Positions 6,398 to 34,896 of a stretch of DNA of 64,000 nucleotides are shown piece after piece. A program made the translations under genes and the position numbers. How positions within the stretch are numbered: position 1 is the stretch's first letter; each line of letters opens with the position of its first letter. A model generated the notes under the pieces. The model had not been told where the DNA came from and ran no database searches. It saw only the letters and a program-made list of their open reading frames with translations. Source of the DNA: an uncultured Anaerolineae bacterium (lineage in GTDB: Bacteria; Chloroflexota; Anaerolineae; JAADDB01); NCBI GenBank assembly GCA_964402285.1, contig CAYOAZ010000010.1, positions 8,357-72,356 on the forward strand, given 5' to 3'.

Positions 6398-6700
6398 ATG
6401 TCCGACACGCTGGCCCACTTGTGGGGCATTATCGAGAATCGACGGCTTTATCCTAAGGAGGGATCTTATACGGTTTCTCTCTTTCGCAAGGGCGTGGGCG
6501 AAATTGCGAAGAAAGTGGGAGAGGAGGCCGTTGAGGTGGTTGTGGCCGCGTTACATGAATCAGATGAGCGACTCGTGTATGAAACCGCGGACCTGGTGTA
6601 TCATGTAATGGTTTTACTATCTGCCCAGGGGCTTTCGTGGGAGGACGTGGAAGCAGAATTGCGTCGGCGGTTTGACATGGGGAGAGAGGAGTTACCATGA
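6398..6700 (+). CDS. hisE: Phosphoribosyl-ATP diphosphatase
   Basis: SYTVSLF...[16 protein letters not shown]...[16 protein letters not shown] aggagg. Confidence 0.96.
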
Positions 6701-7719
6701 GCGAGCAACACGTGAACGCATCGACACGACCCAAAATTTCCATTGTGGCACCGGCGTACAATGAGGAAGAGGTTTTGCCAGAATTTTACCGCCGTGTGCG
6801 TGAGGTGATGGATGCCATCGGTGAGCCGTGGGAACTCATTTTGGTGAACGATGGGAGTCGAGACAACACTTTAGCCATCATGCGGGAGTTGCACGAGAAA
6901 GACCCGCGGGTAAAGATTGTCTCGTTTTCCCGCAATTTCGGCCACCAGTTAGCCATTACGGCCGGTCTTGATTACGCATCCGGGGATGCCGTTATCATCA
7001 TTGACGCGGACTTGCAGGATCCGCCCGAGGTTATCGCTGACCTCATTGCCAAGTGGCGTGAGGGATATGATGTTGTGTACGCGGTACGCAAGGAACGCAA
7101 GGGGGAATCCTGGTTTAAGGAATGGACAGCGAAATTTTTCTACCGCTTAATCTACCGCATCACCGATGTGGATATTCCCAAGGATACAGGCGATTTCCGC
7201 CTGATGGACCGCAAGGTGGTTGAAGCCTTGCGCACTATGCGGGAACGTAATCGGTTCATGCGTGGGCTTTCTGTGTGGGTCGGATTTAAACAGACCGGTG
7301 TGTACTACGTTCGTGAACCCCGTTTTGCTGGTGAGACCAAGTATCCGCTTCGCAAGATGTTGAAATTTGCCCTGGATGCTATTACGTCCTTCTCCTATGT
7401 GCCCTTGCAGTTGGCCACATATACAGGATTTGCCGTGGCGGGTTTGAGTCTGGTGGCCGTGCTTGTGGCTGTGTATCTCCGCTTAACCACGGGGCGAGCG
7501 CTCCTGGGACAGGCAACCACGTTGGTGGCCGTGCTTTTCCTGGGGGGGATTCAACTTATCTTCCTGGGCATTATTGGTGAGTACTTGGGACGTATTTACG
7601 ACGAAGTTAAGGCTCGGCCGTTGTACATTGTGGCGGAGACAATAGGGTTCGATGATCAAAGCGAACAGGTGAGAGTGCGCAGTGTGCCGCCCCCTCACAA
7701 AGAGACTACAGTACAATAG
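6697..7719 (+). CDS. GT2 polyprenol-phosphate glycosyltransferase (GtrB/ArnC-like)
   Basis: [53 protein letters not shown], plus two C-terminal TM helices. Confidence 0.93.
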
Positions 7720-9036: not shown

Positions 9037-9305
9037 GGCCGTGCACCCCCCGTCGAAGCCCGCCCCAATGCCTTACTCGACCGTCCGGCTCCGGCCAGGC
9101 ACCCCCACGTCACCCAGGCGACACCACTTAGGGCTGCTTCCTTCCGGACCTGACCCGGTTCGTGGCTGCCTGCCGCGTGGGACCCAGCCTTCAACGCCGG
9201 GCCGGCCGAGCAGTCACATCAGGGCGAACCCCTCAGGGGGGAATTCAGCCCCGCTATGGCGGATTGCGGGTACAGGGCACCGCCAGCTCCCCGCCTAGCA
9301 CGGCC
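9037..9305 (-). ncRNA. ffs: Signal recognition particle RNA, large (Alu-domain-containing) bacterial type
   Basis: The minus strand reads GGCCGTGCTAGGCGGGGAGCTGGCGGTGCCCTGTACCCGCAATCCGC... (Bacillus scRNA-like Alu domain). It contains the S-domain GAACCGGGTCAGGTCCGGAAGGAAGCAGCC. The 5' GGCCGTGC pairs with the 3' GCACGGCC. Confidence 0.95.
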
Positions 9306-12820: not shown

Positions 12821-13066
12821 GGGCTTTCTTTAGGGCATATGGCGTTGGGCTGTTTATGGTTTGCTAGCGTTTTGTTGCCATGGGGGATTGTGGTCTAGGC
12901 CGCGGCCATTTGGCCCTCTGGCTTTTTTGATTATAATGGAAGTTGCTTGTAAGTAATTGTTGCAGTACCCAGGGTGCGAGAATTTATAATTCACACTAAC
13001 TCGGTGTAGAACGTCTGTACTTCCACGATAAGGGGGTGAGAACGGTCGAAACGCGAGGGGGGACGT

Positions 13067-13296
13067 AGCGCCTGGACTCTCCGCGTAGGGTGGCGTTTGC
13101 GCCTTGGAGACGCGGGGAGTTGACGAGGGTGGAGGTTCCTCACCGCAGGGTGGGGTTAACCCGGATGCCCGTCCGGGGAAAATCGAGAGATCGGCGGATG
13201 CCTCCCAGGGCGTGCCACCGCCCTGCCGTCCCCAAATGGTAAGTGCTCTGACAAAGCCCTCAGGTGACTGGGGGGACAAAACAGAGCACAGTGGCA
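13067..13296 (+). ncRNA. glmS ribozyme (GlcN6P-activated), variant with extra stems
   Basis: Cleavage segment AGCGCCTGGACT, 11-bp P1, GTTGACGAGG, P2 GGAGG/CCTCC and ATCGAGAGATCGGCGGATG are present. P3 is CAGGGCG/CGCCCTG with loop TGCCAC pairing with downstream GTGGCA (P3.1). P4 is GTGCTCTG/CAGAGCAC with a GTGA tetraloop. It lies 175 nt upstream of glmS. Confidence 0.95.
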
Positions 13297-13470
13297 GGTA
13301 CAACTTAAATCCACGCGTGTTGTGCTGGCCCCGCGCGTGCAAAGCACGACAGGGGAACGATAGGTTATTTCCAGGATGGGCTTTGGTTTTCCCTTATCTC
13401 CCTGGTTCGGGGGCCAGTGTGTCTTCATGCCACCACCTGCACTTTTCCTGGAAAGGGAGGAGGGTTATCT

Positions 13471-15321
13471 ATGTGCGGTATTGTCGGTTATGTCGGACCC
13501 CGGAACGCGGTGCCAATTATCTTAGATGGCTTGCAGCGTCTAGAATATCGCGGATATGACTCGGCCGGTCTGGCTGTCCTCTCTGATGACGGTCGGGTTC
13601 ACGTTTACAAGGAGGTGGGGAAGTTAGAGCGCCTGCGGGAGGTGGTGCAGTCTGCCTCGGTGCAGGGGCACACAGGCATTGGTCATACCCGTTGGGCTAC
13701 TCACGGGAAACCAAGTCGATATAATGCCCACCCGCATGCAGATCCGCATCACGATGTTATCGTAGTTCACAATGGTATTGTCGAAAATTACCTGGAATTG
13801 AAGATAGAACTCTCTGCTGAGAACGTTGTTTTTACCTCTGAGACGGACACGGAGGTTATTGTCCACCTTATTGATCGGGAAATTCACCGTGGCTTATCCT
13901 TTGAGGAGGCGGTACGGAGTGCGTTGTTGCGCCTGGAAGGGGCTAGCGCGGTAGTGGCGATGTCTCGCCATCATCCCCACACGTTAGTGGCCGCGCGCTT
14001 GGGAAATGCGGGGGCTGTTGTTGTTGGCCTGGGGGACGGGGAGGTGTATGTGGCTTCCGATATTCCGGCGATTTTACCCTACACGAGGCGCATGGTTTTC
14101 CTGGAAAACCGTGAAGTAGCGGTGGTGCACCCGGATGCTGTTCATTACTGGCACTTGGATACAGGTAAACCCCTATCCCCAAAAATCCACGTTATTCCCT
14201 GGAATCCCCTGGCGGCCGCGAAGGGGGAGTACAAGCATTTCATGCAAAAGGAGATTTTTGAACAGCCCCAAGCCATTACGGATACGTTACGCGGCCGCGT
14301 TGACTTCACCACCGGGCAGGTTACCCTGGAAGATTTGTCCATCACCCCTGAGGAGGCCGCGGCTATTCAACGCATTCACATTGTTGCCTGTGGCACTTCT
14401 TACTACGCAGGATTGGTGGGAAAGTTCTTGATAGAGAACATCGCTCGTATCCCTGTAGAAGTGGATTATGGTTCGGAATTTCGATATCGCGATCCCCTTT
14501 TGAGTTCCCAGGATGTCGTTTTGGCCATTACCCAATCCGGGGAAACCGTGGACACTCTGGCCGCGCTTGAGGAAGCTCGCCGTCAGGGCGTGCGTTCATG
14601 GGCCATTGTGAACGTGGTAGGCAGTCAAGCAGCCCGTATCAGTGACGGTGTTATTTACATGCAAGCCGGACCTGAAATAGGGGTCGCGTCCACGAAGGCG
14701 TTCACGGTCTCGGTCGTGGATCAGTACCTTCTGGCGTTGTACTTAGCGCAAGTGCGAGGTCTCCTTTCCTCTTCGATGGCTCTTGAACACGCGCGCGCGC
14801 TGGCGCAACTCCCGAAACTGGTTGGCGACACCCTGGCTGCGGTGGATACTGTTACGAAGGAACTGGCCCTCCGTTACTATAAGGCTCAGAATTTCCTCTA
14901 TTTAGGTCGCGGTATTCATTATCCAATTGCCCTGGAAGGGGCGTTGAAACTGAAAGAAATTTCGTACATTCACGCGGAAGGTTACCCTGCGGGCGAGATG
15001 AAGCACGGTCCCATCGCGTTAATCGATGAGAACATGCCGGTTGTCGCTTTGGTACCTCAGGATCACGTGTACGAGAAGATGTTAAGTCAGGTTGAACAGG
15101 TGAAAGCGCGAGGGGGACGGGTCATTGCCATCGCAAACGATGGCGATGCGCGCATAACCGAGAAGGCGGATGATGTGATTAGAGTTCCCAAGACGCTTTC
15201 ATTTTTGCAGCCCGTTCTCTCTGTAATTCCATGTCAGTTGTTCGCGTACCACGTAGCAGTACGCCGGGGCAATGACGTGGACCAGCCCCGGAACCTGGCT
15301 AAGTCCGTTACAGTGGAGTGA
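13471..15321 (+). CDS. glmS: Glutamine--fructose-6-phosphate aminotransferase
   Basis: MCGIVG N-terminus, LEYRGYDSAG, GHTRWATHG, VASTKAFT, ALKLKEISYIHAEG, QPRNLAKSVTVE. Confidence 0.99.
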   Translation: MCGIVGYVGPRNAVPIILDGLQRLEYRGYDSAGLAVLSDDGRVHVYKEVGKLERLREVVQSASVQGHTGIGHTRWATHGKPSRYNAHPHADPHHDVIVVHNGIVENYLELKIELSAENVVFTSETDTEVIVHLIDREIHRGLSFEEAVRSALLRLEGASAVVAMSRHHPHTLVAARLGNAGAVVVGLGDGEVYVASDIPAILPYTRRMVFLENREVAVVHPDAVHYWHLDTGKPLSPKIHVIPWNPLAAAKGEYKHFMQKEIFEQPQAITDTLRGRVDFTTGQVTLEDLSITPEEAAAIQRIHIVACGTSYYAGLVGKFLIENIARIPVEVDYGSEFRYRDPLLSSQDVVLAITQSGETVDTLAALEEARRQGVRSWAIVNVVGSQAARISDGVIYMQAGPEIGVASTKAFTVSVVDQYLLALYLAQVRGLLSSSMALEHARALAQLPKLVGDTLAAVDTVTKELALRYYKAQNFLYLGRGIHYPIALEGALKLKEISYIHAEGYPAGEMKHGPIALIDENMPVVALVPQDHVYEKMLSQVEQVKARGGRVIAIANDGDARITEKADDVIRVPKTLSFLQPVLSVIPCQLFAYHVAVRRGNDVDQPRNLAKSVTVE

Positions 15322-34682: not shown

Positions 34683-34718
34683 AAAAAATACAGACCACCA
34701 GGCCGCCCCGGTGGTCTG
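34683..34718 (-). terminator. Intrinsic terminator after 6S RNA
   Basis: CAGACCACC/GGTGGTCTG stem followed by TATTTTTT on the minus strand. Confidence 0.85.
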
Positions 34719-34720
34719 TC

Positions 34721-34890
34721 CCCCCGCAGTGCCGTGTGCCGAGTGGTCCTGAACCTGCTCTCGCAGGTGGGGATCTCGGGTGAGGTTCCCGCCTTGCCTC
34801 TCGGCTATCGCGTTCCCCTCACGCATCTCGATCCCCGTTTTTGATAAGTTGGGTCAGGACGCATCATGGCATCACGCACACCGCAGGGCC
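34721..34890 (-). ncRNA. ssrS: 6S RNA
   Basis: About 170-nt rod. The 5' CCCTGCGGTGTGCG pairs with the 3' CGGCACTGCGGGG. TCCTGACCC pairs with GGTTCAGGA next to an A-rich central bubble, and the CCACCTG...CAGGTTC element is present. It has its own promoter and terminator. Confidence 0.85.
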
Positions 34891-34896
34891 GTAAAA

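Follow-up and report, generated by a model that had tools for sequence, protein, structure and literature searches.

Two hairpins set into a loop of the core pseudoknot are the standard form of the glmS ribozyme in Anaerolineae-type Chloroflexota. The example described here lies in a 64,000-nucleotide stretch of DNA from an uncultured Anaerolineae bacterium (this whole stretch is referred to below as the window), where a structured insertion of 44 nt occupies the core pseudoknot loop, far beyond anything expected by chance. The two-hairpin insert is real and ancient, and it is supported by covariation among related loci. No other natural ribozyme is known to employ a metabolite as its cofactor; the two-hairpin module leaves the understanding of this chemistry unchanged.

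The Rfam glmS model (RF00234) matches the forward strand of the window at 13056–13299 over model positions 1–167, with a score of 63.6 bits (E = 2.6e-12, cmscan) against a gathering score of 37 bits. The element is followed on the same strand, 172 nt 3′ of it, by an open reading frame that scores 793 bits with TIGR01135 (cut-off 418) and whose product is 88% identical to the GlmS of an uncultured Anaerolineae metagenome-assembled genome (MAG; L001). Because the reading frame that begins at ATG 13471 is GlmS, the element sits where a glmS ribozyme is expected, in the 5′ leader upstream of the gene. All of the defining features of the class that can be read from sequence are present at 13056–13299. 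Crystal structures of the canonical ribozyme exist for Thermoanaerobacter tengcongensis and Bacillus anthracis. With the canonical ribozyme the element shares the A↓GCGCC motif (the arrow marks the cleavage site), P1, the double pseudoknot P2/P2.1/P2.2 with its GACGAGG, AUCGA and GGCGGAUGCC segments, P3/P3.1, P4/P4.1 including its purine internal loop and L4, a GNRA loop, and the position in the glmS leader (Table 1). The last G of GACGAGG we take to be the equivalent of the catalytic G (B. anthracis numbering). The AUCGA that starts at 13182 is followed by GGCGGAUG and then by the 3′ strand of P2, CCUCC, and cmscan aligns the peripheral P3/P3.1 and P4/P4.1 domain over 13206–13299. The departures from the canonical form are an L2 loop of UU + 44 nt + A (about 48 nt) instead of UU(U)A, a 14-nt hairpin added between P3 and P4, and a longer P1 loop. 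Judged by these motifs and their arrangement, the element is a genuine glmS ribozyme whose core is intact, and it is probably functional, cleaving itself in a GlcN6P-dependent manner. When GlcN6P is plentiful, the RNA would be cut between A13067 and G13068, and expression of glmS would be lowered.

Table 1. Predicted parts of the ribozyme and its gene, in window coordinates.
Feature	Position	Strand	Basis or remark
Candidate sigma-70-like promoter, TTGGCC-16-TATAAT	12910–12937	+	10/12 matches, consensus match only; ~130 nt 5′ of cleavage site
Predicted self-cleavage site, A(-1)/G1	13067–13068	+	Aligned to AGCGCC consensus of RF00234
P2.2 5′ strand, CGCC; pairs with GGCG 13193–13196	13069–13072	+	Sequence; pairing scheme of PMC7125110
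P1 hairpin, extended loop with inner hairpin	13075–13121	+	cmscan alignment (18-nt extra loop segment); minimum-energy fold
GACGAGG core segment; P2.1 5′ strand CGA at 13124–13126	13122–13128	+	Sequence, cmscan; PMC7125110
P2 5′ strand, GGAGG; pairs with 13201–13205	13131–13135	+	Helix 1 of covariation alignment
UU linker, remnant of canonical L2 loop	13136–13137	+	UU in 114/124 relatives
Insert hairpin hp1, CCUCACC-GCAG-GGUGGGG; 7 bp, tetraloop GCAG	13138–13155	+	Folding, covariation
Linker UUAA	13156–13159	+	CUAA in 112/124 relatives, UUAA in 8/124
Insert hairpin hp2, CCCGGA-UGCCCG-UCCGGG; 6 bp, hexaloop	13160–13177	+	Folding, covariation
Linker GAAAA; final A is the canonical L2 adenine preceding UCG	13178–13182	+	GAAAA in 117/124 relatives
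P2.1 3′ strand, UCG (in AUCGA, from 13182)	13183–13185	+	UCGA in 114/124 relatives
P2.2 3′ strand, GGCG	13193–13196	+	Sequence; PMC7125110 scheme
P2 3′ strand, CCUCC	13201–13205	+	Covariation alignment
P3 hairpin, CAGGGCG/CGCCCUG; loop UGCCAC 13213–13218 is the P3.1 5′ strand	13206–13225	+	Sequence
Small additional hairpin separating P3 from P4, CCGU-CCCCAA-AUGG; C-rich loop	13226–13239	+	Sequence and relatives
P4/P4.1 domain; purine-rich internal loop ACAAAG/GACAAAA, GNRA loop GUGA	13243–13289	+	cmscan; roles from PMC11602151
P3.1 3′ strand, GUGGCA; complementary to P3 loop UGCCAC	13291–13296	+	Sequence
glmS gene (glutamine--fructose-6-phosphate transaminase)	13471–15321	+	616 aa, N-terminus MCGIVGY

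In the established pairing scheme, P2.1 is a pseudoknot helix formed by the CGA of GACGAGG and the UCG of AUCGA, P2 is GGAGG/CCUCC, and in T. tengcongensis the sequence UUUA joins the 5′ strand of P2 to UCG (PMC7125110). Given these pairings, the stretch that runs from the 5′ strand of P2 to UCG is L2, the junction loop in a pseudoknot of the H type. The 44-nt insert (13138–13181), which lies between the 5′ strand of P2 and the 3′ strand of P2.1, is therefore an insert in L2, flanked by UU and by the final A. In the Rfam alignment 51 nt inside P2 disappear into a local end at a point for which the model provides 8, a pattern that marks a large insertion within P2. Taken in isolation, the insert folds into both hairpins at −24.3 kcal/mol (z = −2.65), a stability reached by 1 of 200 shuffles, and both hairpins also appear within P2 when the complete element is folded to minimum energy. 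The original prediction had described 13067–13296 as a glmS ribozyme that has all canonical elements and carries the two hairpins inside its catalytic core; its coordinates and sequences proved correct to the base, and the Rfam score, the motifs, the folds and the local end all bear it out. A mobile or repeated element was also considered and rejected: even with up to 3 mismatches allowed, the window holds no second copy of either hairpin, and the modules of different genomes are orthologous.

Relatives of the window's GlmS were sought in one genome per species, and the 80 nearest loci were taken. All 80 belong to the Chloroflexota (labels include Anaerolineae, Caldilineae, Ardenticatenia, Thermoflexus, Aggregatilineales and similar), with GlmS identities of 61–88%. 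In most of them GACGAGG and GGCGGAUGCC are separated by 62–110 nt, compared with 27 nt in the canonical ribozyme. A covariance model of the P2 domain (R1), applied to the window and to these loci, scored the window at 85.3 bits and gave full-length matches in 63 of the 80 (53.9–99.6 bits), with one more match interrupted by a contig end. No P2-domain match was obtained in 14 loci; three of these have too little upstream sequence, and a check of the other 11 with the Rfam model found no glmS ribozyme within 1.5 kb. A signature pattern built from linkers and core motifs only, with pairing not required (CTAA N8–38 GAAAATCGA N3–5 TCNGCGGATGCC), was found at at least 120 loci, and among the 120 matches listed 115 carry Chloroflexota names and 2 are labelled 'bacterium'. 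The remaining three come from MAGs assigned to Zixiibacteriota (L243), Nitrosomonadaceae (L263) and Gracilibacteria (L300). The GlmS of L243 is 60% identical to that of the window and is Chloroflexota-like; the partial GlmS of L300 is 50% identical, and its affiliation is less clear; no GlmS reading frame was recovered at L263. These three contigs with the two-hairpin ribozyme are probably mis-binned.

This distribution bears on what had been supposed about the host. The original prediction took the sequence to be a core-expanded variant in a probable Chloroflexota thermophile, either similar to rare Deinococcus-Thermus variants or independent of them, and suggested that the insert perhaps affects thermostability or ligand tuning. 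The assignment to Chloroflexota stands, given the 80 nearest loci and the closest GlmS. The form is neither rare nor peculiar to this genome, being the standard one. Record titles place two-hairpin hosts in hot springs but also in soil, groundwater, peat, sludge, anaerobic digesters and sediments, both marine and from vents. Because the hosts come from such mixed habitats, a link to thermophily is unsupported, and the window's G+C content of 54% lends adaptation to high temperature no support either.

The architecture of the insert was derived from 124 distinct sequences, parsed by their conserved flanks with patterns that impose no pairing on the insert. The shared order is GACGAGG, 0 to 2 nt, P2, UU, hp1, CUAA, hp2, GAAAA, UCGA, and the three linkers are conserved at 92% (UU), 90% (CUAA) and 94% (GAAAA). 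The first hairpin, hp1, is 18 nt long in 93 of the 124, of which 65 have GCGA, GCAA or GCAG as the hp1 loop; hp2 ranges from 10 to 72 nt among relatives, with variable loop sequences. The window fits this form (P2-UU-hp1 of 7 bp plus tetraloop-YUAA-hp2-GAAAA-UCGA), with UUAA rather than CUAA as its central linker. In the pairing-free alignment, canonical pairs make up 88–100% at the seven hp1 positions and again 88–100% at the outer four of hp2, with several pair types at each helix position. The alignment fitted to the covariance model was used for covariation, and the anchor-based counts agree with it. There, 98.2% of paired cells hold a pair versus 67.7% in shuffles, and the covariation score of 0.746 compares with 0.198 when shuffled (reached by 0 of 500 shuffles) and with no more than 0.131 when partners are slid by 1–3 columns. 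Changes on both sides of a pair, as compensation demands, occur at 12 of the 12 insert pairs, 7 of 7 in hp1 and 5 of 5 modelled in hp2, so that the predicted hairpins hold across relatives as well as in the window.

The catalytic core around the insert is retained in the same relatives. The cleavage-site motif A↓GCGC(A/C) is found in 116 of the 124, and helix P2 of the core pseudoknot is 100% paired, with 2 of its 5 pairs changed on both sides (GGAGG/CCUCC, GGCGG/CCGCC, GACGG/CCGUC and others). For P2.1, 96 of the 124 have GACGAGG and UCGA as pairing partners, and one double change from A-U to C-G is seen (L034); in P2.2, position 5 and its partner are C/G in 41 relatives, A/U in 10 and A/A in 63. 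Relatives repeatedly show a P3 loop of the GCCAC type and a tail that reads GUGGC, and in those with two hairpins the P3 loop with its tail, the P4 internal loop and the GNRA loop are all kept. In six loci (L017, L026, L039, L042, L051 and L034) the 3′ strand of P2.1 reads GCG in place of UCG; only L034 has the compensating GACGCGG, which makes a C-G pair, and an A-G opposition would be left in the other five. The uridine replaced in these loci is the one that adjoins the cofactor pocket.

A few natural variants show other states of the core loops. The insert is absent from a few Anaerolineae. In one such locus (L061, Rfam 71.7 bits) L2 is the canonical UU-A loop, yet the GlmS of L061 shares 76% identity with that of L238, a locus that carries both hairpins. 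An Anaerolineae MAG (L027, 1193–1255) has a single L2 hairpin with different linkers. Because L061 does without the insert and L027 has one hairpin, the two-hairpin module must be dispensable in some sequence backgrounds. Three Clostridia loci also have a single L2 hairpin (L383, Butyricicoccaceae, 6695–6781; L426, 281–367; L411, minus strand), with flanks that read GGAGG-UU-[hairpin]-GAAAA-UCGA, as in Chloroflexota; the GlmS of L426 is 79% identical to that of L383. They resemble the Chloroflexota form in insertion site, in flanks and in lying upstream of glmS, and score 70–74 bits with the Rfam glmS model, but they have one hairpin and lack the CUAA linker. Taken together, the one-hairpin forms of Clostridia and L027 and the two-hairpin form of Chloroflexota mark L2 as a recurrent expansion site in the glmS ribozyme class. 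In two further variants, an Anaerolineae MAG (L180, 5881–5974) and a Ruminococcaceae MAG (L361, minus strand), a hairpin lies between UCGA and GGCGG. Here too a joining loop of the core pseudoknot is expanded with the catalytic motifs intact, but the expanded loop is L3, and L2 is canonical. An Acidimicrobiia MAG (L322) has a glmS ribozyme at 756–929 on the minus strand (60.5 bits) in which two UCGA motifs flank a GGGG-AGAA-CCCC hairpin; the insertion could be assigned either to L2 or to the loop that follows.

The glmS variants of Deinococcus-Thermus reportedly carry additional stems within the catalytic core. They resemble the present form in being of the same ribozyme class and in having, by that report, extra core helices. 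No Deinococcus-Thermus sequence was among the 120 matches listed for the CUAA...GAAAAUCGA signature, which weakly suggests that those variants lack this exact module; a tblastn search with GlmS against plasmids likewise yielded no Deinococcus-Thermus record among the 60 matches listed. Candidates from Thermomicrobiales, Limnocylindria and 'Chloroflexia' that were picked up by two generic spacing patterns were rejected as chance matches; among the matches listed, those patterns gave mostly chance hits in high-G+C genomes. Our literature search found no paper linking glmS ribozymes to Chloroflexota or Anaerolinea*, and in distribution surveys that mention Chloroflexi the passages on glmS are silent on structure. 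The novelty of the Chloroflexota two-hairpin form is probable, not proven, and there is perhaps an even chance that a published alignment already contains such sequences.

What might the hairpins do? The glmS core pseudoknot is marginally stable and needs peripheral support from the P3–P4 domain, which has its internal loop packed on P2.1, and the joining strands of the core accept change more readily than its helices do (PMC11602151). We suggest, with a probability of roughly 0.6, that the insert serves the core as an accessory structural scaffold, which would make it, after P3–P4, a second peripheral element. By the topology of an H-type pseudoknot, L2 should be the only loop that need not span a groove, and hairpins placed there could for that reason project outward and leave the active site undisturbed. 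Together with P2 and P2.1, the module would form a four-way junction (P2, hp1, hp2, P2.1). The insert hairpins would fold fast, locally and early, and the conserved A-rich linkers might then hold P2 and P2.1 in register so that the double pseudoknot forms and stays formed. The direction in which the hairpins point, and any A-minor contacts made by the A-rich linkers, are conjecture. A scaffold is the most economical reading because the linkers are strict and hp1 is fixed, whereas stem sequences and the length of hp2 are free; the latitude in hp2 length and the lack of a fixed loop also argue against a precise tertiary contact for that hairpin. The role we propose is the one known for the P3–P4 domain, that of non-catalytic helical support for a marginally stable core (PMC11602151). 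The two differ in that P3–P4 is a universal domain located 3′ of the core, with known contacts from IL4 to P2.1 and from L4 to P1, while the L2 module is specific to one lineage.

The hairpins could instead have been merely tolerated, as a neutral expansion at a permissive L2 in which pairing serves just to keep the added RNA out of the way of the core, with no gain in activity. The variability of hp2 in length and loop would be expected of such an expansion, as would relatives that naturally lack the insert (L061), have one hairpin (L027) or carry a hairpin in the other loop (L180), and the single hairpins at the same place in the unrelated Clostridia L383, L411 and L426 indicate that the site takes insertions readily. 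We nevertheless consider this unlikely. The three linkers are conserved at 90–94%, and hp1 keeps its 18 nt in lineages whose GlmS is only 61–67% identical to that of the window; a constraint of this kind on linkers and hp1 exceeds what mere noninterference needs.

Less likely again is a regulatory add-on, in which the module would supply a second input and thereby gate how the core folds, whether by binding a protein or small molecule or by responding to temperature. The conserved UU, CUAA and GAAAA linkers could make a specific pocket or platform, and the hp1 strands of the window resemble the P2 strands (AGGGUGGAGGUU versus AGGGUGGGGUU). Over the 124 sequences, however, hp1 does not track changes in P2, and the likeness seen in the window seems incidental. 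A switch based on competition of hp1 with P2 was rejected because complementarity between the two is not above that with the P2 of unrelated members (3.52 versus 3.44, and 3.46 versus 3.29, in mismatched controls). Stem sequences vary freely, the neighbouring genes suggest no partner, and glmS ribozymes are known for a pre-formed pocket and not for a switching fold (PMC2258182). That the insertion broke the core and left a decayed, inactive ribozyme, with the leader now controlling glmS by different means or exerting no control, is very improbable: the variant does score low with Rfam, half of the sampled loci falling below the gathering score at 26–36 bits, but the scores are low because the model has no states for the insert and resorts to local ends, and all of the catalytic and pocket motifs are intact in the window and conserved clade-wide along with the P3–P4 domain.

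These low scores have a practical consequence for annotation. Of 20 sampled loci with a clear two-hairpin form, 10 reach the Rfam gathering score (37.3–54.8 bits) and 10 fall below it, nine at 26–36.2 bits and one lower (L007, L015, L021, L024, L026, L029, L039, L043, L052 and L063); three more signature-positive loci are also missed. The 63.6 bits of the window stand at the top of the range for the form. With about half of two-hairpin forms below threshold, glmS ribozymes are undercounted in these Chloroflexota, and a dedicated model for the form would recover those that are missed. The glmS ribozyme is a model for the way in which peripheral RNA supports a marginally stable catalytic core, and a clade-wide module provides a natural experiment on the limits of core expansion, for which L061, L027 and the one-hairpin Clostridia forms are ready-made natural deletion controls.

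The second addition to the element, an extra short stem between P3 and P4, had also been anticipated, and a comparable hairpin occurs in relatives at the same site: a stem of 4–6 bp with a C-rich loop that resembles an anti-Shine-Dalgarno sequence (UCCCCUCCUG and similar). Among 98 relatives, the C-rich motif is found in 77 and a stem is detectable in 51. The hairpin is also present in L061, which has no L2 insert. In the examples inspected, its loop is CCUCC-like irrespective of the P2 sequence. We speculate that the L2 four-way junction and the C-rich P3–P4 hairpin together mark an undescribed architectural subclass of Chloroflexota glmS ribozymes, systematically under-annotated, in which these parts make new tertiary contacts or provide a second regulatory input, for example by coupling folding to the Shine-Dalgarno region; taken whole, this broader proposal is doubtful.

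Other structured RNA was noted in the window. Just 5′ of the glmS ATG, a hairpin at 13442–13462 (CUUUUCC-UGGAA-AGGGAGGAG) overlaps the Shine-Dalgarno region of the gene; it was flagged by a terminator scan and has no convincing U-tract. Farther away, on the minus strand, lie a large bacterial SRP RNA at 9039–9303 (187.5 bits) and a 6S RNA at 34718–34892 (75.4 bits).
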